A stretch of DNA of 64,000 bases, taken from the NCBI GenBank assembly GCA_024697625.1, contig JAILFJ010000181.1, positions 22,500 through 86,499 of the forward strand, read 5' to 3'. The translations under genes were made by a program, and so were the position numbers. Positions within the stretch are counted from its first letter, which is position 1. Every line of letters begins with the position of its first letter. The DNA comes from Oscillospiraceae bacterium (GTDB lineage Bacteria; Bacillota; Clostridia; Oscillospirales; Oscillospiraceae). Of the stretch, positions 1,514 through 30,207 are shown one piece after another. Below the pieces are notes generated by a model. That model saw only the letters and a program-made list of their open reading frames with translations. It was not told where the DNA came from and made no database searches.

Positions 1514-4500
1514 CTACTTCACCTGTATTGTGATGCTTGCGCTCTTGTTGGTACCGTCCGTGGTCTTAACGGTGATCTTTGCTGTGCCTTTCTTTCCGGT
1601 GGCATTACGGTAAACTGTCAGGATTGCGTACCAGCCATATTCCTCATCAAAGCCGTAACTCATGGTACCGCCCGCCACATCGGGATTGCTGGATGTTACG
1701 GAGAAGTTGGGCAGCTCGCGGTAATAATATTTCCCGTACTTGCTGAGGCCAACGACTTCATAGCTCAGAGTTCCTTCTCCCCAGCTCTGATAGATGATGT
1801 CTTTCTTTGCTAGATAGCCGCTGTTATTAATGATCTCAACCTTAACGATCTGCGGGATCGGCCGGTAATAGACCGAGTGCATGAGATTCGTCCCATCCGT
1901 GGTCCTGGCGGTGACGCGGATATAATAGTTGTAATTATAACGCACAGCCTGCTCCAGTTTTGGCTTTACAGAGAGGTTACCGGAGTTATTGATGCTGACG
2001 TATCTATTCCGGGCAGCATAGTCAGTCAGCGAACTGTTGGCAACATAATTCCCGCTGTCATTGAGGACTCCCATATCCCAGCTCCAGGACACCTTTTTGA
2101 CGGTCGGCGTTCCGTAGGTTGTACCCAGAACCGCCGTATTGCCCTGGCTCTTTCCGTAGCCAATCGGAACATAATTATTGGCAGCTTTATCGATTCCGTC
2201 ATGCCACCGGTTGTCCAGAGTTTTGGGGATCACCGTGATGGAAGAGGCTGGTACCGTGACATTGACGTTCACACGGATGGACTTGTTGCTGCCGTCCAGG
2301 GCCTTTGCCGTCAGGGTGCACTTTCCGCCATGGCTCGCGCGGATGATGAGGGAAAGATTATCGCTCTGGTCGTATTCGTACCAAAGATCCGCCACTTCCC
2401 ATTTGTTGACCGTCCATTCAATCCCTTCTCCGGCATAGCTTCCGCCGTTTACACGGACCGCCTTCAGAGTCGCTGTATTATCCCGCCTGCTCGTTGACGG
2501 GATGTCTGCCGAATTCAGGGTCAGGGTCTGGCCGTTTTTCACCGGCTGTCCGTTCCAGTACAGATCAACGCCTGTCGCCTTCGGAGCCACTCTCACATAA
2601 TGCTGGTAACAGTAGGCCGAACCCAACTCCGGCTGAGCATAGACATAGAAGCGCGTTCCCACACTGACCCAGGATTCTACCGTAACCTTCCCGTTCATCG
2701 GGTTGATACTCACACCGTAAGGAGGTGCCGAACCTCCGGAAGAATGTACCGACCAGACCAGCTTTTTGTTCGTCGCGTTCTTCGGTGACAGTGTCGCCTT
2801 GAAAGTCGCGGAAGTTCCCGGCGCCATGATCTCCTGCCCTGTGATCATGATATCCTGCAGGCTGGCATTCACCGAGACCGTGAAGCTTAGCAGCTCCTCC
2901 GAGCCATCCGTCGGCATACCGGTGACGGTCACACTGCCCTCGGTCTTCGCGCTGAGTATAAGGCTGCTCTCGCCAGTCTGTTCATCGTACTGTGTCGTCG
3001 CATTCAGGACACTCTCATCGCTGACGTTCCAGCGGAAATCCGCATTCTCAGGGTTCAGAAGCTTGCCCTCGGCATCTTTGATCTCAAAGGGGATGCTCCA
3101 TTTGGTATTTGGCTTCAGTTCCGGAATCTCACCGTTCAGGCGCACGGTCGCGGCACGGACCCTTGTTTCGTTTCTGGCCTCGCCACCGGATTCGCCTTCC
3201 GTATTCTCAGGCTCCGTGATCCGGAGCTCCAGGCAGCTGACTTCGCCCGCCATACCGGCTTCGTTCAGCTCCATGATGCGCAGCTCCACCGTCCGGCCCG
3301 GCTCAAACTCTGAGAGCGGCAGGACGAAGCAGCCCTGCTCCGCGTCATAATGCCCCTTGTCCGACACCTCAGCCCCGTGGACGACCGCTCCGTTCAGCAC
3401 TGCAGGATTCTGTCCGTCCGTGCTGTAGAGGAAGCGGGCTGTGGAGGACGTCCCGCCTGCAGACCGCAGTGTGATATAGCCGTTAGCCGGAACCGTTCCG
3501 TCCGTGATCTCCGTGCCGTTGGCTTTGAAGACGCGGGAATAATATCCGCCCTTCGTCACCCCGAACAGCTTCGCGGCATCAATGACGCCGGCGCCCATGC
3601 CTTTTCCGCTGATTTTGTTGCAGGCTTTCATCAGGATACTGCGCATATAGGGTGGAAAGGATTGGTCGAAGACGGGATTTCCGTAATAACTGAGATAATA
3701 ACTAAGATAAAGCGCTGCGACACCGGAGACCACCGGGGTCGCCATGGAGGTGCCGTTCCAGCATACATACGTACTCCCTGTCGTTGTTGACCAGGTCGTT
3801 GACCAGATCGCCGAGCCGGGGGCTGACACATCGCACCAGTCGCCGTAGTTGGAATACGGTGCGCGGGCGCCGCTGATGTCGGTTGCAGCCACTGCGATTA
3901 CTTCGTCGAAGTAAGCCGGAGCGGCCTTGATATTCGATGCATCATTCCCCATGGATACAATGACTGTCGCACCGGCAACAGTGGCCCTGCGGATAGCACC
4001 ATGTATCTGGCTTGGATAGTTTTTGCTGTTGATGCTCATGTTGATGATCTTCGCACCGTGCTTCCAGGCATAATCAATCCCCTGGGAAATCGCATACTCA
4101 TTGCCACCTCCATTTTCATCCATGACTCGCACCGCCAGGATACTGACACCCGGGGCGATGCCGGCGCCGCCCTTGCCGTTACCCATGGTGGCGGCGATGA
4201 TTCCGGCCACATGGGTACCGTGTCCGTTCTCGTCCATCGGGTCGTTGTCGCCGTCTACATAGTCATCGCCCTTGATTACCTTTCCGGCCAGATCAGGATG
4301 GTTATAATCGACGCCGGTGTCCACAACGGCCACGATGACATTGGACGAGCCTGTCGTGACACCCCATGCGCCATAGCTGTGGACGATATCATGCTGATAC
4401 TGATAGCTGCCTGCAGGATTTCTCAGCAGCGAATCCGGATTAGCCGTGTTGTCGATCCAGTCCTGCCACATGAGCCCGCTGTAAGCGGCGGCCTGCATCT

Positions 4501-5713
4501 GTGTGTCAAAGCTCACACCCTCGGAGAGCATGACAGGATCCACGCTGACAATCCAGTTCGGCTCCACCGCCGGGAGAGGCATTTCCATATCCGCCGCACA
4601 CTCCACGGCTTCGGCTACGGTAGCATCCGTCAGCAGGAGCTTACCTATATAACCGGAGAACTCCGCGAGCTCCGCGTTATACGCCTCGGCGACCATCCGG
4701 GCGTACTCCTCAGACTCTGCGCTGAACAGCACTTCGCCCTCGACGTACTCTCCCGCACCGCTCTGTACCGCCGCGAGGATTCCCTCGTCGGTCAGGACGC
4801 GCTTCTCCTCCAGCTGTTCTTCGCTGAGCTCGTAGTCCTCCGGCAGGCCTTTGAACCCGTAGGGCAGGGCCTCCTTCATGCTGACTGTCACGGTGACCGG
4901 CTCAGAGCCCGCCGCCACTTCCAGTGGGACGTTTTCCTTTGCGCGGAAGCCATCCGCTGTCGCAGACCAGACGTACACACCCGGTGTGAGCAGATAGACC
5001 GCACGGAATACGGTCTCCTCTGCGCCGTCCGGAGCTTCTTCGGCATCAGATGCTGTCGCGTCTGTCTCGGCTCCCTCCGCCATTGCGGCCATCGCTGCCG
5101 TCTCGTCCTCGGCCGGATCTTCTGCCGTTTCCGTAGCAGTCGCCTCTGCAAGCTCCGCTTCCTCGGCAGGGGCCACAGGTGTCTCGCCGGCATACACCGT
5201 AAGGCGGATCTCCTGCGCAGAGACGAATGTCACACAGACAGACTCTGCCTGGGCATCGTCCTCATCCTCGGATTCTTCTTCGCTCTCTTCCGCAACAGCG
5301 GCCTCTTCGTCCGCGGGGGGTTCCGCAGGGTCGCCCTCACCGTCTGTCGGAGTTTCTGCGGGTTCTTCCGCCGGTTCCTCAGGAATCTCTGGCGCCTCTT
5401 CCGCGGGCTCTTCAGGCACTTCTCCGAGCTCCTCTGCGGGCTCCGCCGTCTCTTCCTGCGGTGCTTCGGTCAGCGTCGCATCCCCGGTCGCATCTTCCGC
5501 TGACGGGTCCTCTTCCGGGCTCTCCCCTATCTCGGGGGATTCGCTCTCTTCGCCGAGTTCCTCCCCGAACAGGCTGTCCGCCGCAACGGTCTCACCGAGT
5601 GCTGCCTCTTCCCCTTCCGCCAGCACGGCCGGGAACATCGAGACCAGCATCGTGAAAACCAGCAGCAGGGAAAGCAGCTTTTTCATGCTGTTGTTCTTCA
5701 TTCCTGTCTTCAT
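1514..5713 (-). CDS. Secreted subtilisin-like serine peptidase (S8) with acidic spacer and bacterial Ig-like (Big_2-type) repeats, paralog 1
   Basis: 1399-aa ORF. Signal peptide MKKLLSLLLVFTMLVSMFPAVLA, then an E/P-rich acidic spacer. S8 triad motifs: VAVVDTGVDYNHPDL (Asp), HGTHVAGIIAA (His), NGTSMATPVVSGVAAL (Ser). A prodomain-like segment ends LPLPAVEPNWIVSVDP. Also a CHB_HEX_C-like motif FLYSTDGQNPAV and repeated Big_2-like units ending ...ITVKTTDGTNKSASITIQVK. Confidence 0.93.
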   Translation of the reverse strand: MKTGMKNNSMKKLLSLLLVFTMLVSMFPAVLAEGEEAALGETVAADSLFGEELGEESESPEIGESPEEDPSAEDATGDATLTEAPQEETAEPAEELGEVPEEPAEEAPEIPEEPAEEPAETPTDGEGDPAEPPADEEAAVAEESEEESEDEDDAQAESVCVTFVSAQEIRLTVYAGETPVAPAEEAELAEATATETAEDPAEDETAAMAAMAEGAETDATASDAEEAPDGAEETVFRAVYLLTPGVYVWSATADGFRAKENVPLEVAAGSEPVTVTVSMKEALPYGFKGLPEDYELSEEQLEEKRVLTDEGILAAVQSGAGEYVEGEVLFSAESEEYARMVAEAYNAELAEFSGYIGKLLLTDATVAEAVECAADMEMPLPAVEPNWIVSVDPVMLSEGVSFDTQMQAAAYSGLMWQDWIDNTANPDSLLRNPAGSYQYQHDIVHSYGAWGVTTGSSNVIVAVVDTGVDYNHPDLAGKVIKGDDYVDGDNDPMDENGHGTHVAGIIAATMGNGKGGAGIAPGVSILAVRVMDENGGGNEYAISQGIDYAWKHGAKIINMSINSKNYPSQIHGAIRRATVAGATVIVSMGNDASNIKAAPAYFDEVIAVAATDISGARAPYSNYGDWCDVSAPGSAIWSTTWSTTTGSTYVCWNGTSMATPVVSGVAALYLSYYLSYYGNPVFDQSFPPYMRSILMKACNKISGKGMGAGVIDAAKLFGVTKGGYYSRVFKANGTEITDGTVPANGYITLRSAGGTSSTARFLYSTDGQNPAVLNGAVVHGAEVSDKGHYDAEQGCFVLPLSEFEPGRTVELRIMELNEAGMAGEVSCLELRITEPENTEGESGGEARNETRVRAATVRLNGEIPELKPNTKWSIPFEIKDAEGKLLNPENADFRWNVSDESVLNATTQYDEQTGESSLILSAKTEGSVTVTGMPTDGSEELLSFTVSVNASLQDIMITGQEIMAPGTSATFKATLSPKNATNKKLVWSVHSSGGSAPPYGVSINPMNGKVTVESWVSVGTRFYVYAQPELGSAYCYQHYVRVAPKATGVDLYWNGQPVKNGQTLTLNSADIPSTSRRDNTATLKAVRVNGGSYAGEGIEWTVNKWEVADLWYEYDQSDNLSLIIRASHGGKCTLTAKALDGSNKSIRVNVNVTVPASSITVIPKTLDNRWHDGIDKAANNYVPIGYGKSQGNTAVLGTTYGTPTVKKVSWSWDMGVLNDSGNYVANSSLTDYAARNRYVSINNSGNLSVKPKLEQAVRYNYNYYIRVTARTTDGTNLMHSVYYRPIPQIVKVEIINNSGYLAKKDIIYQSWGEGTLSYEVVGLSKYGKYYYRELPNFSVTSSNPDVAGGTMSYGFDEEYGWYAILTVYRNATGKKGTAKITVKTTDGTNKSASITIQVK

Positions 5714-5766
5714 TTCCTTTCTGTGTTGTTATCCGTTTCCCGTAAATATCTGGACCGTCTAGATAC

Positions 5767-5795
5767 AGAATACCATATTCAGGGAGTGGTTGCAA
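5767..5795 (-). promoter_or_regulatory. Candidate promoter of S8 paralog 1 (conserved cassette)
   Basis: Minus strand: TTGCAA (5795-5790), 17 nt, TATTCT (5772-5767) preceded by TGg. The same -35/-10 and flanking block (acagaataccatat on the plus strand) recurs upstream of paralog 2. Confidence 0.45.
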
Positions 5796-5912
5796 CCGGT
5801 GATTCGTTCTTCAGCGCCGTGATTGGCACAATCAGCACGCCGTCCGGTGCGATCCGCCGCGGTTTCTCCGCCCGTACGGATCCGGTCTGTTCTGTAATTT
5901 CGCTGTTTCGCG

Positions 5913-6790
5913 TCACCTGGTGAAGAGCTGATAGCTGCTGTACTCCGGATAGCGCTTGACAGTCTGATAGCCTGTCTGGATATTCCCGTATTTATCATAG
6001 TAGCTGATCGGAGTGTTGTCCCCTACCGCGCTGATGTACCGGTACAGCTCTTCCAGCGTCACAATCCCGTCCTTATTGCCGCCGTACTGCATATCCGCCG
6101 GAAAATTTCCGCTCGTACCGACGCCGTTCGTCAGCCATTTGGTGAAATTGTTATAGGAATCCGAAGCGCTGCTTCCTTCCCTGCCGAAACTCAGCTGCTG
6201 AAGCGCAGAAGCTGTCAGGACATAGAACTTGTTGGCGACACGGAGCTCTCCGGTTTGGGCAACGACCTCCTTGGTTTCCTCATCCGCACTCGCGAAGGCA
6301 TCGATCAGAGCCTGGGTAAACTGATCGTCCGCCATCCCCTCGGTTTCGGCCCCGTTGTTCGCGCTGTTGGCATAAACCGCCGCACCTGAGCCGCAGGACT
6401 CCACAATGACGATCACCTTGCCGGGCACCGCCTTCAGCCAGGATGCCAGATCCCGGAAGTAAATAAACTCTCCGTTCGCTGTCGCCAAAGCCCCTGCATA
6501 GGCGGAACCCGCTCCGTTGGAGACGTCGCCGTGGGTTGCGATGAAGAACAGCGAGACGTCCTGTTCCGTGGCATCGGCAAAGGTCGCTGCAATGGCATTT
6601 CTGATCTGGCTGGGACTGTAGTCCTTCCCCCCGTAGATGTTTCCGTCGTATGGGTTGCCGTCCGGGCCTTTAACACTTCTCAGCATCCCTGTCATCAGCA
6701 GTACGTCGCCCCAGTTGCGATTGCACACATCGCCGTCGCTGAAGTTCACTTCGCCAAACAGCAGCGCACGGTATTTTGTCGAAGCTGACC
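5913..6790 (-). other. Clan-CD (caspase/legumain/metacaspase-like) peptidase-like domain plus one EF-hand-like loop at the C-terminus of paralog 2
   Basis: The translation is KYRALLFGEVNF...DVSLFFIATHGD (beta-strand + His-Gly, DNA ~6521-6545) ...PGKVIVIVESCGSGAAV (hydrophobic strand + E-S-C-x-S-G, DNA ~6380-6405). This is the His/Cys dyad layout of legumain (EACESG) and metacaspases (DSCHSG). The tail has GGNKDGIVTLEELYRYI, an EF-hand/dockerin-like Ca loop (DNA ~6040-6085). Confidence 0.65.
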
Positions 6791-9700
6791 TGACATAGAG
6801 GGTAGCACTGTTGCTGTAAACCGCGACCCCGTCATTTCCGGTCACCCGACAGCGGAACTCGTAATTGTTGTATGCGGACGTGGCCGTAAAGCTCAGGGTG
6901 CTCGTCTTATTTCCGTTCAGGGAACTGTTCTGCCAGGTCTCACTCCCGGGTGCTTTCATCTCCCACTGGTAGCTCAGGCTGTGTCCCGTTGCCGTCACCC
7001 GGAAGGTCGCCGTCGCATTCGGGTCCACAGTAAGATTCGCCGGATGTGTCGTAATGTCGGCATCGTGGAAGTTTGCGCTCAGTACAAGACGGATGGTTCC
7101 GGTGGTGTCAGAGCTGTAATATCTCACCTCAAAGAAGTAAGTCGTTCCGGCAGCAAAGTCATAGGTAATGCTGAAGTTGTTGCTTTCCCCGCCATCGTCG
7201 TCGTAGGCAAGCTGATTTTCCGAGGCATCGTAGAGATAGCCGTAGGTGTCGTCGGACCCGGTGGATGTCAGAGTGTAGCTGCCCGACAGCGTGGGTACAA
7301 ATCGGAACCTGACTCTCTCCCCGCCGGCACTGATCACCGCCGTAGTTGTGCCGGGAGAAATAGATGCTATTACTCTTAGCCGAGCTGTGTCACTGTAGAC
7401 TGGGACCCCGTCATTTCCGGTCACCCGACAGCGAAACTCGTAATTGTTGTATGCGGACGTGGCCGTAAAGCTCAGGGTGCTCGTCTTATTTCCGTTCAGG
7501 GAACTGTTCTGCCAGGTCTCACTCCCGGGTGCTTTCATCTCCCACTGGTAGCTCAGGCTGTGTCCCGTCGCCGTCACCCGGAAGGTCGCCGTCGCATTCG
7601 GGGCCACAGTAAGATTCGCCGGATGTGTCGTAATGTCGGCATCGTGGAAGTTTGCGCTCAGTACAAGACAGATGGTTCCGGTGGTGTCAGAGCTGTAATA
7701 TCTCACCTCAAAGAAGTAAGTCGTTCCGGCAGCAAAGTCATAGGTAATGCTGAAGTTGTTGCTTTCCCCGCCGTCATCGTCGTAGTCAAGCTGATTGTCC
7801 GAGGCATCATAGAGATATCCGCAGGTGTCGTCGGACCCGGTGGATGTCAGGGTGTAGCTGCCCGACAGGGTGGGTACAAATCGGAACCGAACGCTCTCCC
7901 CGCCGGTGCTGATCACCGCCGTAGTTGTGCCGGGTACAATCGTACGAACCTGTTTCGCATTTACGGTCAGAGTCGCTGCGTTGCTTATGGCACTGTTCGA
8001 ATCTGCCCCTCGCACCAGACAGCGGAACTGCCAGCTGTTATATCGGGTATCGCCGGGAACGCGCAGCGTGCTTGTATCATGTCCCTCAAAACCGGCCGAT
8101 ACCCAGACGCTCTCGCCTCTCCTCTTCATCTGCCACTCATAATATACACTCGTGCCGGATGCCGTAATGGAAAAACTTGCCGCCGTCCCCTCTGCCACGG
8201 TCACGTTCGCAGGGTGTCTTGTAATTGAGACGGCAGTGGGGGCACTGTCATTGATGACCTTCACGCTGATCTTTGCGCTCTTGTTGCTGCCATCGGTGGT
8301 CTTGACGGTGATGGTCGCGCTTCCTGCCTTGCCGCTGCTGTTTCGGACAACATCCAGCATTCCGTAGTATCCGTAGCTGTCGTCATATCCTATGAAGACA
8401 ATACCGCTCGCCACGTTCGGGTCGCTGGAGCTTACGGAGAAGTTGGGCAGACTGCGGAAATAGGTTCTGCCGCTCTTTCCATAGCCGAGGATTTCAAATC
8501 TCTGTCTTCCCTCGCCCCAGCTTGTGCGGAGCTCGGTCTTCTTCACCTCATGGCCGTAGCCGTCCTCGATCATGACCTTGTTGATCTGCGGGATCGGCCG
8601 GTAGTAGACCTCATCACGCAGGCCTGTCCCATCAGTGGTTGAGGCATACACACGGATGGCATAGTCATAGCCCAGCGCGAGCTCTGCATTCGCCTTCAGA
8701 GTGAGGTTGCCGGAGGCGTTGATACTGACATATCTCTTTGAGGCAGCATTGTGTGTCAGCGACCAGTCGGTATAATACTCTCCGTATTCGTTGAAGCCGC
8801 CCAGGTCAACACCCCATGCCACCTTCCTGACACTCGGGGTACCGTAGGTCGCGCCAAGAACCGCTGTGTTCCCCTGGCTCTTGCCGTAAGCTATGGGAAT
8901 ATAGTGAAGGCCGTTGTCAAGTCCGTAAAAGAAATCTTTGTCCTGTGACTTGGAAATAACTGTAATGGAGGATGCCGGAACCGTGACCCTGATCTTCACA
9001 TTGGCGGTCTTGTTCGACCCGTCCATGGCCTTTGCCGTCAGGGTGGCCGTGCCTGCGTTGTGGGCATTCACCCGAATTCCGCCCTGACCGTTGTCCTCAT
9101 CGATGCTGACGATGGCGGCATTGCTGGTTGTCCATTGGATTCCGGCCCAACGGTCATAGATGCTCCCGGTTTTCCCGGCCACACGCCAGGCATCCAGCCA
9201 CGCGCTTCTGTCGTTGGCGCTTGTTCCGGGTAGGTTGGCGCTCTGCAGGGTGATCGTGGCGCTGTTTTTCAGTTCCGCAGCGTTGTTCAGCTTCAGGCCA
9301 ACGGCCCCGGCTTTGTTGTCAACCGTGACATCAATCCTGTTACTCCAGACATTGCCTCCGTCGGTCGAATTTGCCAGAACAGAGAATGTTGCCCCCAGCG
9401 GTGCTGTACGATCTACCGTGACTTTTCCCGATGTCGGGTTGCAGGTCACCCAAACGGAAACGGGATCGACAGCCCAGGTCACTTTTTTATTCTTTGTGTT
9501 CTTCGGAAGAACCAGGCTGGCCTTATAGGTAGCGCTGGTTCCGGGGGCGACGATGCTCTGGCCGGTGATGGTGATGCTGCTGACAAGGTTGGATACCGAC
9601 ACACTGACAGAGATCGGCTCGACGGACTCGTCCTCGACAGTGCCGCTCAGCCTGGCAGTTCCGACCTTCCTCGCATAAACCAGGACCTCATACTCCCCGG

Positions 9701-12023
9701 TTTTCTCATTCTGCACCGTCTTCACCTCTGCAACCGTGGGGTCACTGCTGATCCAGGTGACGGAGACATCCTTCAGGCTCAGAGCCTCGCCATCCGTGTT
9801 GCGTATCTCCACCGGCAGAACCCTTGTCGCACCCACTGCCAGGGACGGGACCTCGCCATTCATGACGATGGAAGCAATCTTCGCTTTCCCGTCTTTCTCC
9901 TCCTCGGTTTGCTCCTCCGCGTCTTTATTATCCTCCGGCTCGGTAATCAGGAGCTCGACCCGGGTAACCTCGCCAGCCATGCCGGCTTCGTTCAGTTCCA
10001 TGATGCGCAGGTCCACTATCTGGCCCACCTCAAACTCCGTAAGCGGCAGCACAAAGCAACCCTGCTCCGAGTCAAACCGGCCGACTGCGGCAACTTCCGC
10101 ACCGTGTACCACGGCACCGTTCTGAACCGCCGGGTTCTTTCCGTCTGCGCTGTACAGGAAACGGGTTGTCGCCGCGGTGGCTCCCGCTGAACGCAGCGTC
10201 AGGTAACCGTCTGACGGTACCCTGCCGTCTGTGATCTCCGTGCCGTTGGCATTGAAAACCCTTGTATAGTGTCCGCCTTTCGTCACGCCGAACAGTTTCG
10301 CAGCATCAATGATACCGGCACCCATGTCTTTGCCGCTGATCCTGTTGCATGCACCCATCAGGCAGGCACGCATCTGTGAGGCGTTATAGTGGGTTCCGTA
10401 CTTGCTCATGAACAGAGCCGCCACACCGGAGACCACCGGGGCCGCCATGGAGGTACCGTTCCGGCATTCATAACCCCCGCCCGTAGTTGACCAGATGGCA
10501 GACCCTGGGGCCGATACATCGCACCATGCGCCATAGTTGGAATACGGTGCCCTGCCGCCGCTGATGTCCGTTGCGGCCACAGCTATAACTTCGTCAAATG
10601 CTGCCGGAAAGCACTTGATGTTCGTGCCGTTGTTTCCCATGGCGACGATAACTGTCGCTCCGCTGCTGACTGCCCTGCGGATCGCTGCCAGCTCAAGCGG
10701 GTTGTAATAGTTTCCACCCAGACTCAGGTTGATAATCTTTGCGCCGTTCTGCCAGGCATAGTCGATTCCCGAGGCAATGCTGTACTCACTGCCGTTGCCG
10801 TTTTTATCCAATACGCGCACGGGCAGGATGCTGACACCCGGGGCGATGCCGGCGCCGCCGATGCCATTACCCATGGAGGCAGCAATGATGCCCGCTACAC
10901 GGGTACCGTGGCCCTGCTCGTCCATCGGGTCGCTGTCGCCGTCTGCAAAGTCATAGCCGGGCAGAACATTCCCTGACAGATCCGGATGGGTATAATCCAC
11001 TCCGCTGTCCACCACGGCCACAATCACATCAGGGGAACCTGTGGTCACACCCCATGCTCCGTAGCTGTGGACGATGTCATGCTGATACTGATAAGCTCCG
11101 CCGGGATCGCTCATCAACTCGTCCGGCCAGGCAGTGTTGTCGATCCAGTCCTGCCACATCAGTCCGCTGTAAGCCGCAGCCTGCGCCTGGTTGTCAAACA
11201 CCGCGCCCACTGTGGGCATATCCGGATCCAGCGCTACCTTCCAGTTCGGACTCACAGCCGGGAGAGGCAGTTCCATGTCCGCTGCACACTCCACGGCCTC
11301 AGCTACAGTATTCTCTGTCAGCCGGAGTTTTCCCATATAGCCCGAGAACTCCGCCAGCTCCGCGTTGTACGCTTCTGCGACCATACGGGCGTACTCCACA
11401 GACTCTGCGCTGAACAGCACCTCGCCCGCAGCGTACTCTCCCACGCCGCTCTGCACCGCCGCAAGGATCCCCTCGTCTGTCAGGACGCGCTTCTCCTCCA
11501 GCTGCGCCTCGCTGAGCTCATAGTCCTCCGGCAGCCCCTTGAACCCGTAGGGCAACGCCTCCTTGCTGTCCTCCGACGCGTGCTCCTCTTCCTCGGCCTC
11601 CTCTTCGGCAGCTTCTCCCGCCTCGGGATCTTTCTCTTCTGCCGCTTCTTCGCTGCCTGTTTCTGTGGGTTCTTCCTCCGGCTCCTCTTCAGGTACCTCG
11701 GCCGGTTCTTCGGGCAGCTCTTCCGGTTCCTCCGCGGGCTTCGCCGTTTCCTCTGCCGGGAGCTCTGTCGGCGGTCCGGTCAGCACTTCATCCGCGGGCG
11801 CTCCCTCCGAGAGTTCCTCCTCCGGTTCCATCCCCTCCGGCATTCCTTCAAGCTCAGGGATCCCCGCCGGTTCTTCATCATCAATCTCAAGGATGTCGTC
11901 CGCAGTGATGATCCCGTCGGATGGCGCATCCTCCCCCTCGGCCAGTGCGGCAGGGAACAGGGAGACCAGCATCGCAAGGACCAGCAGCAGGGACAGCAGC
12001 TTCTTCATGCTGATGTTCTTCAT
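5913..12023 (-). CDS. Chimeric secreted peptidase: S8 subtilase + Big_2 array + (Ig-like/PPC) tandem modules + C-terminal clan-CD (caspase/legumain-like) peptidase domain, paralog 2
   Basis: 2036-aa ORF with signal peptide MKKLLSLLLVLAMLVSLFPAALA and an acidic spacer. S8 motifs: VAVVDSGVDYTHPDL, HGTRVAGIIAA (catalytic His kept, second His replaced by Arg), NGTSMAAPVVSGVAAL. The Big_2 repeats end ...ITVKTTDGSNKSAKISVKV, exactly where paralogs 1 and 3 stop. The protein then continues with Ig-like (ITTHPANLTV...YQWEMK...YEFRCRV) and PPC-like (GYLYDASENQLAYDDDGGESNNF...YFFEVRYY) modules and a His/Cys domain. Confidence 0.93.
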   Translation of the reverse strand: MKNISMKKLLSLLLVLAMLVSLFPAALAEGEDAPSDGIITADDILEIDDEEPAGIPELEGMPEGMEPEEELSEGAPADEVLTGPPTELPAEETAKPAEEPEELPEEPAEVPEEEPEEEPTETGSEEAAEEKDPEAGEAAEEEAEEEEHASEDSKEALPYGFKGLPEDYELSEAQLEEKRVLTDEGILAAVQSGVGEYAAGEVLFSAESVEYARMVAEAYNAELAEFSGYMGKLRLTENTVAEAVECAADMELPLPAVSPNWKVALDPDMPTVGAVFDNQAQAAAYSGLMWQDWIDNTAWPDELMSDPGGAYQYQHDIVHSYGAWGVTTGSPDVIVAVVDSGVDYTHPDLSGNVLPGYDFADGDSDPMDEQGHGTRVAGIIAASMGNGIGGAGIAPGVSILPVRVLDKNGNGSEYSIASGIDYAWQNGAKIINLSLGGNYYNPLELAAIRRAVSSGATVIVAMGNNGTNIKCFPAAFDEVIAVAATDISGGRAPYSNYGAWCDVSAPGSAIWSTTGGGYECRNGTSMAAPVVSGVAALFMSKYGTHYNASQMRACLMGACNRISGKDMGAGIIDAAKLFGVTKGGHYTRVFNANGTEITDGRVPSDGYLTLRSAGATAATTRFLYSADGKNPAVQNGAVVHGAEVAAVGRFDSEQGCFVLPLTEFEVGQIVDLRIMELNEAGMAGEVTRVELLITEPEDNKDAEEQTEEEKDGKAKIASIVMNGEVPSLAVGATRVLPVEIRNTDGEALSLKDVSVTWISSDPTVAEVKTVQNEKTGEYEVLVYARKVGTARLSGTVEDESVEPISVSVSVSNLVSSITITGQSIVAPGTSATYKASLVLPKNTKNKKVTWAVDPVSVWVTCNPTSGKVTVDRTAPLGATFSVLANSTDGGNVWSNRIDVTVDNKAGAVGLKLNNAAELKNSATITLQSANLPGTSANDRSAWLDAWRVAGKTGSIYDRWAGIQWTTSNAAIVSIDEDNGQGGIRVNAHNAGTATLTAKAMDGSNKTANVKIRVTVPASSITVISKSQDKDFFYGLDNGLHYIPIAYGKSQGNTAVLGATYGTPSVRKVAWGVDLGGFNEYGEYYTDWSLTHNAASKRYVSINASGNLTLKANAELALGYDYAIRVYASTTDGTGLRDEVYYRPIPQINKVMIEDGYGHEVKKTELRTSWGEGRQRFEILGYGKSGRTYFRSLPNFSVSSSDPNVASGIVFIGYDDSYGYYGMLDVVRNSSGKAGSATITVKTTDGSNKSAKISVKVINDSAPTAVSITRHPANVTVAEGTAASFSITASGTSVYYEWQMKRRGESVWVSAGFEGHDTSTLRVPGDTRYNSWQFRCLVRGADSNSAISNAATLTVNAKQVRTIVPGTTTAVISTGGESVRFRFVPTLSGSYTLTSTGSDDTCGYLYDASDNQLDYDDDGGESNNFSITYDFAAGTTYFFEVRYYSSDTTGTICLVLSANFHDADITTHPANLTVAPNATATFRVTATGHSLSYQWEMKAPGSETWQNSSLNGNKTSTLSFTATSAYNNYEFRCRVTGNDGVPVYSDTARLRVIASISPGTTTAVISAGGERVRFRFVPTLSGSYTLTSTGSDDTYGYLYDASENQLAYDDDGGESNNFSITYDFAAGTTYFFEVRYYSSDTTGTIRLVLSANFHDADITTHPANLTVDPNATATFRVTATGHSLSYQWEMKAPGSETWQNSSLNGNKTSTLSFTATSAYNNYEFRCRVTGNDGVAVYSNSATLYVRSASTKYRALLFGEVNFSDGDVCNRNWGDVLLMTGMLRSVKGPDGNPYDGNIYGGKDYSPSQIRNAIAATFADATEQDVSLFFIATHGDVSNGAGSAYAGALATANGEFIYFRDLASWLKAVPGKVIVIVESCGSGAAVYANSANNGAETEGMADDQFTQALIDAFASADEETKEVVAQTGELRVANKFYVLTASALQQLSFGREGSSASDSYNNFTKWLTNGVGTSGNFPADMQYGGNKDGIVTLEELYRYISAVGDNTPISYYDKYGNIQTGYQTVKRYPEYSSYQLFTR
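6811..7936. repeat. In-frame tandem direct repeat, period 579 bp (193 codons), two near-identical copies inside S8 paralog 2
   Basis: Position p aligns with p+579 without gaps. I counted 18 mismatches over 6825-7355 versus 7404-7934 by hand. Only 4 of them fall in the first ~365 nt. Each unit encodes one PPC-like plus one Ig-like module. A third, diverged Ig-like copy lies at ~7960-8230. Confidence 0.95.
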
Positions 12024-12097
12024 CTCCGTTATTTCGTCCTTTCTGTATTGCTTCTCAGCTTTTGTGATTCTGAGAAAAATTCACACTGTTTGAGGAC

Positions 12098-12126
12098 AGA
12101 ATACCATATCCCCAAGGGCATTGCAA
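12098..12126 (-). promoter_or_regulatory. Candidate promoter of S8 paralog 2 (conserved cassette)
   Basis: Minus strand: TTGCAA (12126-12121), 17 nt, TATTCT (12103-12098), with the same flanking block as upstream of paralog 1. Confidence 0.45.
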
Positions 12127-12188
12127 CCGAAATAAGCACCGGAAATGAAAGCAGTGAAAGTACAATACCCTGACAGCAGCCCTGACAA

Positions 12189-12218
12189 CTTCGGGCGGAG
12201 CTCCCGCTCCGTCCGAAG
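12189..12218 (-). terminator. Stem-loop downstream of S8 paralog 3 (weak terminator candidate)
   Basis: cttcgggcgga (12189-12199) pairs with tccgtccgaag (12208-12218) with one mismatch and an 8-nt loop. No clear U-tract in minus orientation. Confidence 0.3.
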
Positions 12219-12310
12219 GGAATTCTGTATTGAGCTGTGCCAACCGCCTCGCCTTCCATTACCTGGACATTGGATGGCTGCGCCGTGATCACAGTGGCCG
12301 GGACCGGCAG

Positions 12311-15300
12311 TTACTCCACTACCTTCACGTTGAAGCTCAGACTCCTGTTCGATCCGTCTGTGGTCTTCACCGTAATCTTCGCGGTGCCGGTTTCGGTGCT
12401 GGGATAGACCTCGACCCGGTCGCCTGATGCTATCGCCCCTGCGACTTCCGGCTTACTGCTGCTCACGGTGAAGCCGCTATACCAGCCGTCATAATCGACA
12501 TCGGCAATTCCCATATAGGAATCCAGCGCAAGCGTCATGGTGTTCTTCGTCTCGGAGAAGGAGTACACGTCCGGTTCTTTCGCACCGAAGGAAAAAACGT
12601 AGAAGCGGTCCGACAGGAAGGCCTTTGTCGTGGTTCTGTTAACATAATACCAGATGTCCGCCGAGGCCCCGCTCCCGTCCGTCGCGGTCGCGGTCACGCA
12701 GACAATGACAGCCTTGCCCCCGTCTTTGCTGACATAGACATCGGATCCCACCATATTCTCCCAGGCGTTCTGGAAACGCCTGTTGACTGTGAGCGTTCCG
12801 TTTTTCACGGTGATGTTGCTCCCCGGATCGAACTCCGTCATGGAAAGACGTACATTTCCCGCTCCGAATTCCGTAAGATAGCATTTGAGGCTCCAGGTGA
12901 CCTTGGTGTTCGTCGGTTTCCCGAAGGTGTCGCCGAAGATCACGCTGTTGCCGACGCTCCTGCCGATGCCGACCGCGTAATAACTCATGTTCTCTCGGCC
13001 GCAGTATAATGATTCCGGAAGCTTCGAGCGAATGATGAAGTGGGAGACGGGATTGACGACTCTGACGGTGATGCGGGCAGTTTTGTTGCTTCCGTCCGTC
13101 ACTTTCGCGGTGACGGTCGCGGTTCCGGTTTTCTTCGCCCTGACGGTCACCGCGCCGGATCCGTCCTCTTCCACCTTCGCCACCTCCGGCTTGCTGCTGG
13201 TCCAGACCACGCCGACGCCGCTGTCGTCATTGCCGCCTCCGACCAGGACCCGGCGCGCTGCGATCTCGGCGCGGTTATCCGCCCCGTCCGTCTCCGGCAG
13301 ATCCGCCGAGAACAGCGTCAGCGTCTTCGGTGCGGCGGCGGCGTTCATCCGAAGCTCCAGCTTCTGCGCCTTCGGGGCAACCATGCCCGCGCCCCCTGTG
13401 ACGGCCGCCTCCGCCCCCAACACGGGCTGCGCATAGACATAGAACGCCGTTTCCGCCGAGACCTCTGCCGGCACTGTCAGCTTTCCCTTGGAGTCGATGG
13501 TGATTCTTTCGTCCTCCGTGTAGACATACCACTTCACCGCTTTGTTCGCCGCGTCCTTCGGCGTGACCGCGCTCACTTTGTAGGTCGCGGACGTCCCCGG
13601 CGCAACAATCTTCTGGCCGGTGACTGTGAGCATCTCCACACCCGGCCTCACCGTCAGCTTCAGCGTGACCGTCTGGTTGGACCCATCCATCGTCCTGCCG
13701 GTCACGGTGGCGCTGCCCTTCCCGTTGGCGCAGAAGGTGGGAAGCCCGCTCTCGTCCCAGACAACGCTGACGACCTTCGTGTTGCTGCTGCTCCACTTCA
13801 GGGAGGCGTTTCGCGGATCCACCGGGTCGCCGTTTACATCCGTGATGGTCAGCGCCTCTGCCTCAAGTCGGTATTCCTCACCGGTATACAGCGTCCGCAG
13901 CTTCCCCGTGAATCGCATGCTCCTGACCGTCGGCAGCGACTCCACCCCGATGCTGCAATCCTTCTCTATGTCGTATGCCTCCGAGCGGGCCCGGATCACA
14001 ACGGCATCCCCCGCAAAGGACACCGGCACCGTCAGAAGCCCTGCAGAGGCGTTGATCCAGTTCTCGCCCGCCGGTTCGGCTACCGACCATACAACCGTCT
14101 GGTTTTCCGCCTTTTCGTCCAGCGTATACCCGTAGGCATCGTCAAAGCTGCCCCAGACCTCCGCCGTCAGTGTGACTGACGTTCCGCGCGTCACGCTTTT
14201 GGGTGCCTGAACATTGATGCGGAGGTTCTCCAGCTTATCCTGCGAAGGCGGCACGATCTGCACCTTCAGCGTGGATACCTTGCTCGGGATCGCCAGGCCG
14301 TTTACCTCCATGAACTTGAAGGTCAGGCTCTGGTCCGTCTCGAAGCCGCCCAGCGGAATACGGAAGCCGCCCAGCTCCTGCTCATACGCGTATACGCCGC
14401 TGACCAGGTAACCACAGGTCGGGTTTCCGTTCTTCACCGCCGGATTCTTTCCGTCCATGGTATACAGCAGGAAACTTGTCGCCTGGGTGATTCCCCTGCC
14501 GGACTGCACCAGCAGGTATCCCTGCGGGCTGACCTTTCCGCTCGCGGTCACTTCGGTACCGTCTGCCTCAAACAGACGGATCACCGGCGGTGTGGTATCC
14601 CCGGCGAAGAGCTTCGACGCATCGATGATGCCCGTTCCGGCACCTGCGGGACCTTTGCTGACCGCCTTTTTCAAAATCGCTTCCATGGCGGCAGGGTCAG
14701 TGTATCCGTAACGGCTCATGTACAGCGCCGCCACACCGGCCACCACCGGGGTCGCCATCGAGGTGCCGTCCCAGCATTCGTAGCTGCCGCCCGTCGTCGA
14801 CCAGATGCCCGAACCGGGGGCCGCTACATCGCACCAGGGGCCGTAATCCGAATAGTCGGCCAGACCGCCGCCGGCGTCTACCGCGGCAACGGCAACGACA
14901 CCGTCAAAGCCCGCGGGCCAGGTCCTGATGTTCGAACCGTCGTTTCCCATGGCGGCAACAACGGTTGCTTCTTTTTCCTCCACCGCGTAACGAATCGCTT
15001 CCTCCTCAATGGAGCTGTACCTAGTGCCGCCGAGACTCATGTTGATGATCTTCGCGCCGGAGTCCGCCGCATCATAATAACCTGCAATGATCCATTCATT
15101 ATAACCGAGGCCATCGGCATCCAGCACCCGCACCGCGTAGATTTTCGCGTCCGGCGCAATACCGGCGCCGCCCTCGCCGTTGCCCATCGCCGCGGCGATG
15201 ATCCCCGCCACATGGGTGCCGTGGCCGTCCTCATCCATCGGGTCGCCGTCTCCCTCGACATAGTCCCCGCCGGGGATGACCTTTCCGGCCAGATCCGGAT

Positions 15301-16315
15301 GGGTATAATCCACACCGCTGTCAACCACTGCCACGGTGACGCCCGCGCCGGTGGACACGCCCCAGGCCTCATAGGTGTTGACCATGTCGTGCTGGTACTG
15401 ATACGCGCCGCCCGGGTCGCTCATGTAGGGGTCGGGATCCGCGGTGCTGTCCATCCAGCTCTGCCAGTTCTGCTGCTCAAACAGTGCCTGTGCGGTGTTA
15501 AGGCCCTCGGCGGCGGGGAGGATCGGCACCGACACCCTCCAGTTCGGCTCCACCGCGGGCAGGGGCAGCCCCATGTCCGCCGCCGCGGTCACGGCCTCCT
15601 CCACCGTCGCCCCGGTCAGATACAGCTTGCCGAAGTGGCCGTTGAAGTACGCCAGCTCCGCGTTATATGCCTCCGCCACCAGCTCCGCGTATTCCCGCGT
15701 GGCCGCAGAGAACAGGACCTCACCCTCGGCGTACTCTCCGACAGCCAGATCCGCGACGACGCCGTTCTCCGTCAGGGCGCGCTTCGCCGCAAGCTCCGCC
15801 TCCGAGAATTCATAGTCCTCCGGCAAGCCTCTGAAGCCGCAGGGGAGCGCTTTGTCTTCGGTCTCTTCCTCCGACGGTTCCTCAGCTTCATCCGCCGATT
15901 CAAGAGTCCCCTCGTCGAGCTCCTCTTTCCCGGCCTCGGCTTCCGCCTCCGTATCCTCGTCTTTCCTTTCCTCAGGTTCCTCCGGCGTTTCCTCTGCGGC
16001 CTCTTCGGGTGCGGTCGGTGCTTCCTCCGCCGCTTCTTCGGGCGCCTCCCCCATCGACTCTTCCGCAGACTCCGTCCGTCCGGCATCGGGCGTCTCCGTC
16101 AGTTCCCCGGAGGCTTCCTCCTCCAGCCCGGCTTGCATGTCGTCCCCGAGGGCTCCCTCATAAGAGTCTTCCGGCATTCCATCTTCCAAAGTCTCTGCCA
16201 GAATCTCTTCTCCCGGGGCCGTCCCGTCCTCCGCCACTGCGGCGGGGAACAGGGCGATCAGCATGGCCAGAACCATGACCACTGCCAGGAGCTTTTTCAT
16301 GCCCTTGCTTTTCAT
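12311..16315 (-). CDS. Secreted subtilisin-like serine peptidase (S8) with Big_2 repeats, paralog 3
   Basis: The ORF is open to 16390, but I prefer ATG 16315 (MKSKGMKKLLAVVMVLAMLIALFPAAVA), which has GGAGAG 5-7 nt upstream. Acidic spacer follows. S8 motifs: VAVVDSGVDYTHPDL, HGTHVAGIIAA, DGTSMATPVVAGVAAL. Also LLYTMDGKNPAV and Big_2-like repeats ending ...ITVKTTDGSNRSLSFNVKVVE. Confidence 0.9.
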   Translation of the reverse strand: MKSKGMKKLLAVVMVLAMLIALFPAAVAEDGTAPGEEILAETLEDGMPEDSYEGALGDDMQAGLEEEASGELTETPDAGRTESAEESMGEAPEEAAEEAPTAPEEAAEETPEEPEERKDEDTEAEAEAGKEELDEGTLESADEAEEPSEEETEDKALPCGFRGLPEDYEFSEAELAAKRALTENGVVADLAVGEYAEGEVLFSAATREYAELVAEAYNAELAYFNGHFGKLYLTGATVEEAVTAAADMGLPLPAVEPNWRVSVPILPAAEGLNTAQALFEQQNWQSWMDSTADPDPYMSDPGGAYQYQHDMVNTYEAWGVSTGAGVTVAVVDSGVDYTHPDLAGKVIPGGDYVEGDGDPMDEDGHGTHVAGIIAAAMGNGEGGAGIAPDAKIYAVRVLDADGLGYNEWIIAGYYDAADSGAKIINMSLGGTRYSSIEEEAIRYAVEEKEATVVAAMGNDGSNIRTWPAGFDGVVAVAAVDAGGGLADYSDYGPWCDVAAPGSGIWSTTGGSYECWDGTSMATPVVAGVAALYMSRYGYTDPAAMEAILKKAVSKGPAGAGTGIIDASKLFAGDTTPPVIRLFEADGTEVTASGKVSPQGYLLVQSGRGITQATSFLLYTMDGKNPAVKNGNPTCGYLVSGVYAYEQELGGFRIPLGGFETDQSLTFKFMEVNGLAIPSKVSTLKVQIVPPSQDKLENLRINVQAPKSVTRGTSVTLTAEVWGSFDDAYGYTLDEKAENQTVVWSVAEPAGENWINASAGLLTVPVSFAGDAVVIRARSEAYDIEKDCSIGVESLPTVRSMRFTGKLRTLYTGEEYRLEAEALTITDVNGDPVDPRNASLKWSSSNTKVVSVVWDESGLPTFCANGKGSATVTGRTMDGSNQTVTLKLTVRPGVEMLTVTGQKIVAPGTSATYKVSAVTPKDAANKAVKWYVYTEDERITIDSKGKLTVPAEVSAETAFYVYAQPVLGAEAAVTGGAGMVAPKAQKLELRMNAAAAPKTLTLFSADLPETDGADNRAEIAARRVLVGGGNDDSGVGVVWTSSKPEVAKVEEDGSGAVTVRAKKTGTATVTAKVTDGSNKTARITVRVVNPVSHFIIRSKLPESLYCGRENMSYYAVGIGRSVGNSVIFGDTFGKPTNTKVTWSLKCYLTEFGAGNVRLSMTEFDPGSNITVKNGTLTVNRRFQNAWENMVGSDVYVSKDGGKAVIVCVTATATDGSGASADIWYYVNRTTTKAFLSDRFYVFSFGAKEPDVYSFSETKNTMTLALDSYMGIADVDYDGWYSGFTVSSSKPEVAGAIASGDRVEVYPSTETGTAKITVKTTDGSNRSLSFNVKVVE

Positions 16316-16365
16316 GGCTGCTCTCCGTCCTTCCTGCATTCTTAGTTTGTTTACTCTTTGTACGC

Positions 16366-16395
16366 AGTTTAGCATATCCGCAGAAAGCATTGCAA
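16366..16395 (-). promoter_or_regulatory. Candidate promoter of S8 paralog 3
   Basis: Minus strand: TTGCAA (16395-16390), 18 nt, TAAACT (16371-16366) preceded by TGc (extended -10-like). Confidence 0.4.
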
Positions 16396-16477: not shown

Positions 16478-16870
16478 TCAGGGCTCGGCGGTATTTGCTC
16501 CGTTCCAGTTCTGTGAGAAGACCGGGTCGTCAAGGGTGATCACATGGTTGATCTCCAGACTCGGCCAGCCCTTCTCTTCTCCGCGTCGGATCACCTCATA
16601 CGGATCCTCTTCGGTGTGAAATGCCGCCACGTGCTCTGAGCACTCCACCAGCTCGATCCCGTACAGAGAGGCGATCTCTTCCGCCTCCTCACGGGACTCC
16701 ACCGTGCAGATCAGCTCCTCACCTTCCGCGATCTGCCCTCTGAGGAAGTTGGAGGGAGGTGTACTGGCCCCGCCGTGCGGTGTTGCCGTCTCCCCACGTG
16801 TTCCGCCGCAGCCGGTCAGTACCGCCGCCGCGGCCAGAATCAGGGCGCCTATTGTCTTTGCTGTCCGCAT
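16478..16870 (-). CDS. Small lipoprotein resembling the prodomain segment of the adjacent S8 peptidases
   Basis: 130 aa. AAAGGAG lies 7 nt before ATG 16870. The signal peptide has lipobox LTGC (MRTAKTIGALILAAAAVLTGCGG). The mature part EGEELICTVESREEAEEIASLYGIELVECSEHVAAFHTEEDPYEVIRRGEEKGWPSLEINHVITLDDP aligns by eye with EGEVLFSAESEEYARMVAEAYNAELAEFSGYIGKLLLTDATVAEAVECAADMEMPLPAVEPNWIVSVDP of paralog 1. Confidence 0.8.
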   Translation of the reverse strand: MRTAKTIGALILAAAAVLTGCGGTRGETATPHGGASTPPSNFLRGQIAEGEELICTVESREEAEEIASLYGIELVECSEHVAAFHTEEDPYEVIRRGEEKGWPSLEINHVITLDDPVFSQNWNGANTAEP

Positions 16871-30091: not shown

Positions 30092-30143
30092 CCCGTGCAC
30101 ATCCTCCTTGATCAGAATGTATAATACCGCATAGATATCACCA

Positions 30144-30172
30144 TTATAATACGTCGGCGGTCTTCTTACAAG
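30144..30172 (-). promoter_or_regulatory. Candidate promoter of TG-2
   Basis: Minus strand: TTGTAA (30172-30167), 17 nt, TATAAT (30149-30144), about 50 nt upstream of ATG 30091. Confidence 0.45.
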
Positions 30173-30207
30173 CTGCATTTCTTAAGAATTTCCTAACAAT
30201 TCGGCAT

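Follow-up and report, generated by a model that had tools for sequence, protein, structure and literature searches.

Bacterial homologs of caspases have mostly been discussed as intracellular proteases of cell death, toxin-antitoxin systems or defence. Gingipains and the other clan CD proteases of families C25 and C11 in gut and oral anaerobes are secreted, are specific for Arg or Lys and carry Ig-like or adhesin modules; they belong to different families from C14 and follow other routes of secretion and anchoring, and we know of no gingipain or C11/C25 relative that is fused to a serine protease. Within C14-like proteins, only one orthocaspase has been biochemically characterised (PMC5756287). 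GSU0716 of Geobacter sulfurreducens (PDB 3bij) is a stand-alone bacterial protein of C14-like fold without demonstrated function, secretion or binding modules, and the paracaspase MALT1, in which a caspase-like domain stands next to an Ig domain (caspase-Ig3), is a eukaryotic, intracellular signalling protease. On the serine protease side, Tk-SP of Thermococcus kodakarensis (PDB 3afg) and KP-43 (1wmd) stop, like the collagenases ColG and ColH, after a domain of the pre-peptidase C-terminal (PPC) type, and none of these proteins has a second protease domain. Here we describe a gene that joins two such proteases. It lies in a 64,000-nucleotide stretch of DNA from an Oscillospiraceae bacterium (GenBank assembly GCA_024697625.1, contig JAILFJ010000181.1, forward-strand positions 22,500 to 86,499), which we call the window, and its single open reading frame (ORF) encodes a subtilase of family S8 that continues into a C-terminal cysteine peptidase domain whose modelled structure places it in family C14. 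Both protease families are well known, but their fusion is rare and restricted to this lineage, and its C14 part belongs to a large uncharacterised family of secreted caspase homologs.

The window contains three tandem minus-strand genes for large S8 subtilases: paralog 1 (1514..5713, 1399 aa), paralog 2 (5913..12023, 2036 aa), which is the fused gene, and paralog 3 (12311..16390, 1359 aa). Paralogs 1 and 3 stop a few residues past a Big_2-type motif, KITVKTTDG(T/S)N(K/R)S...VK, with the C-terminal ends ...KITVKTTDGTNKSASITIQVK and ...KITVKTTDGSNRSLSFNVKVVE, respectively, each directly before the stop codon. Paralog 2 has the counterpart motif ITVKTTDGSNKSAKISVKV at aa 1238-1256, after which it reads on for 780 more residues without a stop. 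An initial reading of the DNA (the sequence-only reading) had described exactly this difference in termination, which the ORFs confirm; it had also recognised the junction motif, although the motif lies at nt 8256-8312 and not at the ~8250-8276 given there. The extension begins between nt 8256 and 8255, and the peptide that spans the junction is ...KISVKVINDSAPTAV.... The ORF of paralog 2 is uninterrupted, and its product is identical to NCBI MCR5138510.1, a protein labelled 'MAG: S8 family serine peptidase [Oscillospiraceae bacterium]' (MAG, metagenome-assembled genome) whose source is a single 87-kb contig.

The S8 head of paralog 2 is complete (all features of this protein are on the minus strand). 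Its Peptidase_S8 catalytic domain (aa 332-559, 10347..11030) passes the threshold of Pfam PF00082, at 178.8 bits and E=1.9e-52, and both the Asp339/His372/Ser525 triad (motifs VAVVD339SG, GH372GT and GTS525M) and the oxyanion Asn464/465 are present, so that membership in subtilase family S8 is secure. A Big_2/Ig-like stalk in common with paralogs 1 and 3 (8256..10223) follows, and ITVKTTDGSNKSAKISVKV at its end marks the paralogs' termination point. At the other end of the protein, a Sec signal peptide is predicted at aa 1-28 (11940..12023; MKNISMKKLLSLLLVLAMLVSLFPAALA, followed by EGE), judged by eye from a basic n-region, a hydrophobic core and an A-L-A motif. No LPXTG-type anchor motif occurs in any of the three paralogs, and Pfam reports no S-layer-homology or dockerin domain for paralog 2.

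The extension ends in a 291-aa domain (aa 1746-2036, 5916..6788), which we characterised using an AlphaFold (AF2) model, Foldseek and a profile comparison with the PDB. Taken alone, the domain matches only CHAT in Pfam (E=0.16), with no PF00656 (Peptidase_C14) match even at E<=10, and it reaches 33.1 bits (E=3.8e-8) with the NCBIfam model NF047832, 'caspase, EACC1-associated type', for which the curated cut-off is 140 bits. (A PDB search with the single sequence returned spurious antibody matches only and is superseded by the profile and structure searches.) A homolog search retrieved 111 relatives of the domain, the majority with precomputed Peptidase_C14 matches, and relatives linked to it at E<=1e-80 pass the PF00656 gathering threshold of 21.4 bits (P0311, 27.8; P0315, 36.7; P0254, 37.1; P0324, 39.6 bits). 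Because the domain itself stays below this threshold and its close relatives pass it, its membership in C14 is transitive and structural. The AlphaFold model, computed from a 58-sequence alignment, has a pLDDT of 86.6 and a pTM of 0.86. Its best Foldseek matches in the PDB are all C14 proteins (probability 1.00, E~5e-9, TM 0.5-0.6), namely AtMC9, MALT1 (the second-best match), AtMC4, GSU0716 and caspases 1, 3, 6, 7 and 8. A trimmed family profile finds metacaspase-4 (AtMC4) in the PDB at E=2.6e-6, and sequence identity to metacaspases and orthocaspases is 12-15%. As modelled, the domain is a divergent member of peptidase family C14 in clan CD, with a caspase fold.

This result bears out the proposal of the sequence-only reading that a second, clan CD head has been added to a complete subtilase: the model has a caspase fold matching metacaspases 9 and 4, MALT1 and caspases, a His/Cys dyad aligns to that of AtMC4, and the S8 triad is intact. 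The same reading had described the head as caspase- or legumain-like, and here only the first part holds, in the form of a metacaspase/paracaspase-like C14 domain. The legumain family, C13, is rejected: the domain has no PF01650 match, there are no legumains among the 50 best Foldseek matches, and precomputed PF01650 matches occur only in a few distant relatives, alongside PF00656. Direct profile matches to C13, C14 and PPC (PF01650, PF00656, PF04151) are all absent from the extension, and it is the relatives that pass PF00656.

The motifs that had first drawn attention to the domain are located at aa 1826-1833 (FFIATHGD, nt 6525-6548) and aa 1872-1881 (VIVESCGSGA, nt 6381-6410). The predicted catalytic His1831 (FFIATHG; codon 6531..6533) aligns under the His of the metacaspase-4 motif HYSGHG, and the predicted catalytic Cys1877 (ESCGSG; codon 6393..6395) aligns under AtMC4 Cys139; in the chain of the AtMC4 C139A mutant, it is Ala that occupies the column of Cys1877. 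Both residues (domain His86 and Cys132) are invariant in 58 of the 58 aligned sequences, as are the glycines after each (G87 and G135), Asp28, Asp77 and Glu247. Domain Asp28 is Asp1773 of paralog 2 (RNWGDV, helix alpha1; codon 6705..6707), a predicted S1-pocket acid that aligns to the CxNDV Asp of AtMC4 and TbMCA2. In TbMCA2 this residue is Asp95, which corresponds to MALT1 Asp365, and it is on helix alpha1 that these S1-pocket residues lie; the acidic S1 pocket of MALT1 consists of Asp365, Asp462 and Glu500 (PMC4357240). Glu1875, two residues before Cys1877, corresponds to TbMCA2 Asp211 and MALT1 Asp462. The putative acidic S1 pocket of the metacaspase type, with Asp1773 and Glu1875, predicts cleavage after Arg or Lys, and the pocket of the terminal domain is probably directed to these residues. 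Specificity for Arg/Lys is shared by metacaspases, paracaspases and orthocaspases (PMC4357240; PMC6426788).

The terminal domain has three further features. A disordered linker (aa 1888-1923, 6255..6362; domain residues 143-178, pLDDT <50) separates the p20-like and p10-like halves, and after it comes a conserved GELR motif, whose Arg1928 (domain R183) is nearly invariant in the family. Orthocaspase MaOC1 autoprocesses, as do caspases and type II metacaspases (PMC5756287); by analogy, the linker and the GELR Arg would make a plausible self-activation site. The second feature is an EF-hand-like loop (aa 1977-1993, 6045..6095), within which GGNKDGIVTLEEL, the stretch already picked out as EF-hand-like in the sequence-only reading, occupies aa 1981-1993 (nt 6045-6083). 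A calcium-binding EF-hand loop spans 12 residues, of which positions 1, 3, 5 and 12 supply acidic or polar ligands and position 6 is Gly. The family consensus of the loop, ADxNxDGxxTLxEL, is canonical and gives weak profile matches to EF-hand proteins in the PDB (E 0.004-0.01). In paralog 2 a 4-residue insertion puts a Gly at position 1 (GGNKDGIVTLEE), and the Glu at position 12 is invariant. Finally, the model includes a small extra C-terminal beta-sheet.

Compared with described proteins, the domain is closest to metacaspases (AtMC4/AtMC9, TbMCA2), the orthocaspase MaOC1 and MEROPS C14B in general, which have the same fold and provide the best Foldseek and hidden Markov model matches. With metacaspases and orthocaspases it has in common a His-Gly and a Cys-x-Ser-Gly after equivalent strands, the S1 Asp of helix alpha1 and a flexible p20/p10 linker. 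However, those proteases are cytoplasmic, whereas paralog 2 is predicted to be secreted. Unlike in metacaspases, the domain is placed at the C-terminal end of a subtilase of 2036 aa, after Ig and PPC-like modules, and has the EF-hand-like loop and the extra beta-sheet. Its family also does not conserve an acid at the second position ahead of the Cys. In both MALT1 and paralog 2 the caspase-like domain lies next to Ig domains; in paralog 2 the Ig modules precede the protease domain, and the setting is predicted to be extracellular.

Between the junction and the terminal domain, the modules occur in the order Ig, PPC-like, Ig, PPC-like, Ig, as the sequence-only reading had stated. Ig-like module 1 (aa 1257-1358, 7950..8255) has I-set/Ig_3 matches, Ig-like module 2 (aa 1461-1552, 7368..7643) has weak K319L-like PKD, Ig_3 and I-set matches, and Ig-like module 3 (aa 1654-1745, 6789..7064) matches Ig_3 at aa 1657-1728; in Pfam, the I-set/Ig_3 scores of these modules range from sub-threshold to threshold, and the PKD match is weak. 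The intervening PPC-like modules are beta-sandwiches that resemble collagen-binding domains (module 1, aa 1359-1460, 7644..7949, AF2 pLDDT 95.4; module 2, aa 1553-1653, 7065..7367) and are 92% identical to each other. At the DNA level, nt 7383-7934 and 6804-7355 are 95.5% identical over 552 nt with a period of 579 nt (6804..7934 in total), and by this measure one PPC-Ig unit was recently duplicated in tandem to give the second.

The assignment of the PPC-like modules holds for the fold and not for the Pfam profile. Neither copy in paralog 2 matches PF04151, with weak PA14 and GLEYA matches only, and among 27 related copies a weak PPC match occurs in 8 (best E=0.0024) and a PA14 match in 11, the PA14 score being equal to or better than the PPC score. 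We built a model from an alignment of related copies with AF2 and compared it with the PDB by Foldseek. It matches the collagen-binding domains of the clostridial collagenases (ColH s3, TM 0.75; ColG s3b, TM 0.73), the pre-peptidase C-terminal domain of a Bacillus anthracis collagenase (5sv5, TM 0.74), the C-terminal jelly-roll of the Tk-SP subtilisin (3afg) and the C-terminal domain of the subtilase KP-43; over Tk-SP, KP-43 and ColG/ColH, the C-terminal domains match the ~100-aa module with TM 0.64-0.75. On the basis of these models, 'PPC-like' is correct at the level of the fold. Two S8 relatives without a caspase-like domain, P0116 (aa 1156-1351) and P0182 (aa 1443-1537), end with one or two PPC-like copies, which indicates that portions of the cassette can be joined to a subtilase separately.

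A second fusion is found on L001, a syntenic contig in the Logan assembly of run DRR507854, which carries the closest relative of the S8 part of paralog 2. It encodes a 1715-aa protein that matches paralog 3 with 95.5% identity over residues 1-1333 and then continues with one Ig and a caspase-like domain. The C14 domain of this protein is 76% identical to that of paralog 2 and shares its dyad and its lineage-specific insertions; the join is in the same register as in paralog 2, a few residues after the terminal ...VKV. The DNA of paralog 3 is colinear with L001 to the end of the Big_2 motif, where it has TAA and L001 stays open. Past the stop codon of paralog 3 (12311-12313), a further 23 codons, LPVPATVITAQPSNVQVMEGEAV (12243..12310, minus strand), are colinear with the L001 coding sequence and form a remnant of the lost Ig-caspase extension; beyond them, a ~1.1-kb deletion relative to L001 comprises exactly the rest of the Ig-caspase module and its stop codon. 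From this comparison of sequences, paralog 3 once had an Ig-caspase extension and has secondarily lost it. Given an extension on the ortholog of paralog 3 and a remnant in paralog 3 itself, the fused state is older, and at least one short paralog represents a secondary loss. The sequence-only reading had invoked a stop-loss or gene fusion; a fusion of two proteases is upheld, but a simple stop-loss in paralog 2 is incompatible with L001 and the remnant. As far as the aligned sequences go, the fusion is real, being present in two independent assemblies and on two different paralogs. Comparison of flanking DNA revealed no extension remnant after paralog 1, which is followed by a hairpin, or after the related gene P0113.

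These tandem arrays are mosaic. The S8 array has three genes in the window (1514-16390) and two in L001 (4616-18420), and P0113 combines a 5' end, signal peptide included, that is ~100% identical to paralog 2 with a 3' flank and a hairpin like those of paralog 1. Measured per 100 aa, identity ranges from 22% to 91%, and divergence is fastest in the Big_2 tails. The pattern suggests recombination and diversification of the surface-exposed parts of the S8 paralogs. Upstream of paralogs 1 and 2 (5714-5912 and 12024-12242, minus strand) there is a common intergenic block, ...GGTTGCAA...N17...TATGGTATTCTGT...CAATACAGAAAGGA..., that resembles a promoter and a ribosome-binding site, and each S8 paralog probably has its own promoter.

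To place the fusion in context, we searched 1.84 billion representative proteins exhaustively with a profile. At E<=1e-30 the caspase-like family comprises 847 clusters, a number that rises to 3714 at E<=1e-10, and several of its members score above the Pfam C14 cut-off. Almost every protein of the family begins with a signal peptide. The caspase-like domain is at the extreme C-terminus in most of them and N-terminal or internal in some (P0298, P0300, P0291), and C14 is the sole recognisable catalytic domain in most members scanned. Its partner modules are Ig/I-set, Big_2, BspA-type leucine-rich repeats (LRR), fn3, PKD and the PPC-like module, of which as many as eight copies can stand in tandem; a transglutaminase-like core occurs in one member. 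Of the 79 loci found in species-representative genomes, nearly all belong to MAGs of rumen or ruminant-gut Clostridia (Oscillospiraceae, Ruminococcaceae, Lachnospiraceae and Christensenellales), often with several copies per genome. Some proteins (P0232, P0233 and P0234) contain two caspase-like domains, and caspase-family genes are arrayed in tandem in several genomes (loci L029, L057, L059, L061 and L064).

Within this family, the joining to a subtilase is exceptional. No S8 domain was found in the ~260 other caspase-family proteins, in the same ORF as the caspase domain at any of the 79 genome loci, or at any of 18 metagenome loci; conversely, a caspase domain is absent from all 119 other closest S8 relatives. 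An S8 gene lies ~600 nt downstream of a caspase-family gene at two loci of Ruminococcaceae MAGs (L018, 10001-12147; L020, 10001-12142), which is the only other proximity of S8 and caspase genes in the 97 loci; otherwise the two families show no genomic linkage. The first scan of JGI metagenomes, made with exact paralog 2 peptides, found no relative. One caveat applies to all such counts: the L001 fusion protein sat inside a 90% cluster represented by the shorter paralog 3, so clustering can mask further fusions. Subtilases are not among the partners listed in a 2012 survey of caspase homologs in prokaryotes, which also finds Firmicutes poor in such genes, and we found no description of an S8-caspase fusion or of secreted rumen caspase homologs in the literature. 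The sequence-only reading had considered that the fusion might prove to be a common, already annotated architecture; with two instances, and an NCBI label that reads 'S8 family serine peptidase' only, it is neither.

The explanation towards which we lean, with confidence a little better than even, is that paralog 2 of this Oscillospiraceae bacterium, which is of a ruminant-gut type, encodes, in a single gene, a predicted Sec-exported and non-anchored protease with an S8 and a C14 head that serves in extracellular protein degradation or processing. The protein would be exported via Sec, as predicted from its sequence, and would not be anchored. The N-terminal S8 subtilase head would be followed by the long Big_2 stalk, the Ig-PPC-Ig-PPC-Ig cassette and the C-terminal C14 head with His1831/Cys1877, so that the two heads would stand ~1200 residues apart on a Big_2/Ig/PPC-like stalk whose modules probably bind substrate or the cell surface. 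In this lineage the Ig-PPC-C14 cassette appears to have been joined to the end of a subtilase; elsewhere in the family, C14 would be delivered by Ig, LRR and PPC modules. Cleavage after Arg or Lys by the C14 head would complement the broad specificity of the subtilase, giving two specificities on one scaffold. We infer that the most likely role is extracellular degradation or processing of proteins, with the enzyme acting in trans, and the C14 head could possibly activate itself by a cut in the disordered p20/p10 linker. That the dyad, the glycines and the Asp of helix alpha1 are kept in both S8-linked copies, although these are only 76% identical, argues for a constrained and catalytically competent enzyme.

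Several observations weigh against this explanation. The terminal domain itself is below the Pfam C14 cut-off and every NCBIfam cut-off. The residue two before the Cys varies across the family (E/G/Q/S/D), which means that the S1 pocket is conserved in part only. Among the ~350 caspase-family members examined, the S8 fusion was found only twice. Paralog 3 has lost the module by deletion, and the 119 other S8 relatives lack it. This deletion and these relatives indicate that C14 is dispensable for the subtilase, and they do not indicate a coupling of S8 and C14. The C14 cassette normally works with binding modules alone and subtilases normally work without the cassette, a distribution that indicates no interdependence of the two heads. 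The sequence-only reading had suggested that one head could activate the other or that the pair could broaden the range of substrates; both ideas are speculative.

It might instead be proposed that the C14 domain acts mainly in cis, cutting its own linker or stalk in order to mature or shed the subtilase, rather than serving as a second degradative head. The clan CD cysteine protease domain of MARTX and large clostridial toxins offers a likeness, and the position of the domain at the extreme C-terminus of secreted, adhesin-like proteins in most relatives would fit, as would the disordered 36-residue internal linker with a nearly invariant Arg after it and the autoprocessing of caspases, type II metacaspases and MaOC1 (PMC5756287). 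However, the domain is N-terminal or internal in P0298, P0300 and P0291, is present in two copies in P0232 and P0233, and has no similarity to C80 domains; in addition, autoprocessing usually activates an enzyme that acts in trans, so that such cuts are compatible with action in trans. We consider a role mainly in cis unlikely.

To a more far-reaching proposal we give the same low weight. Here, an Arg/Lys-specific, possibly Ca2+-gated C14 head and the subtilase would form an extracellular relay, processing each other or a shared substrate bound by the Ig/PPC modules, and the family of ~850 clusters would represent unrecognised secreted, active metacaspase-like proteases that take part in rumen protein breakdown or the processing of surface proteins.

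Less probable again is that the C14 module is idle in this protein, either as a passenger nearing loss or as a non-catalytic binding or structural domain, which would make the protein in effect a plain subtilase. In favour of this, the same module has been deleted from paralog 3, the closest S8 relatives are without C14, and in this sub-branch the EF-hand-like loop is broken by the 4-residue insertion. Yet both S8-linked copies, at 76% identity, keep every invariant position (the His, the Cys, both Gly and the S1 Asp), the ORF is intact across 2.3 kb, and the recent duplication has expanded the cassette, with no erosion.

An error in the data, such that the long ORF is an assembly chimera of the MAG or a sequencing error and the real genome has two genes, we judge to be very improbable. 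The exact protein is encoded by a single known contig of a single MAG, which would, if taken alone, leave a chimera possible, and the 552-nt near-identical repeat in the extension is of the kind that short reads resolve poorly. The L001 fusion answers this concern: an S8-Ig-C14 ORF is present in an independent assembly of another sample, with the same join after the terminal Big_2 motif, and paralog 3 preserves a remnant of the same join. Nor does the junction look like a misassembly, as the paralogs are only ~75% identical around it with no long exact repeat there, the window offers no further copy of the extension that could have seeded a chimera, composition does not break (GC3, the GC content of third codon positions, is 0.69 versus 0.68 across the junction), and no start codon with a signal peptide lies inside the extension.

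Membership of the domain in an intracellular conflict or anti-phage system (EACC1-associated or gasdermin-type) is next to excluded, being effectively refuted by the architecture, for although NF047832 is the only curated sequence model that the domain touches (E=3.8e-8), its 33 bits are far under the 140-bit cut-off, PADLOC gives no match for the domain, no NTPase or gasdermin gene lies nearby in the window, and signal peptides and extracellular Ig, LRR and PPC modules are found in the protein and in nearly all its relatives.

Other genes of the window, also on the minus strand, deserve mention. Directly upstream of paralog 3 is a 130-aa ORF with a lipoprotein-type signal (16478-16870; MRTAKTIGALILAAAAVLTGC...), conserved in L001, which lies between paralog 3 and a 1504-aa ORF. 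The 130-aa product resembles the pro-region of the subtilases faintly and without significance (E=0.14); it could act as a propeptide-like inhibitor or chaperone, or the resemblance could be due to chance. The 1504-aa protein (16941-21455) looks secreted and has no Pfam domains, and L001 has a counterpart at the same position upstream of its S8 array. The array is further adjoined by two giant proteins with BspA-type LRRs, of 2868 and 1355 aa (21572-30178 and 34289-38356); BspA-type LRRs are the commonest partner of the caspase-like domain elsewhere, and both proteins in the window are without this domain. Two adjacent hybrid histidine kinases (42664-49250; Cache/HisKA/HATPase/REC/Hpt) have no evident tie to the fusion.

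The paralog-specific gain, duplication and loss that we observe imply that cassettes are shuffled quickly among tandem surface-protease genes. The S8-C14 protein would be a natural dual-class protease with which to test the cooperation of two specificities on one scaffold. The broader family of secreted caspase homologs, whose function we infer throughout, may merit more attention than the S8 fusion itself. In this family, the caspase fold is the catalytic end of a very large set of secreted, modular proteins of ruminant-gut Clostridia, and in the present lineage it has become joined to a subtilase. If active, these proteins would give an abundant group of gut bacteria extracellular cysteine proteases with Arg/Lys specificity, which would bear on how protein is degraded in the rumen and on how bacterial surface proteins are processed.

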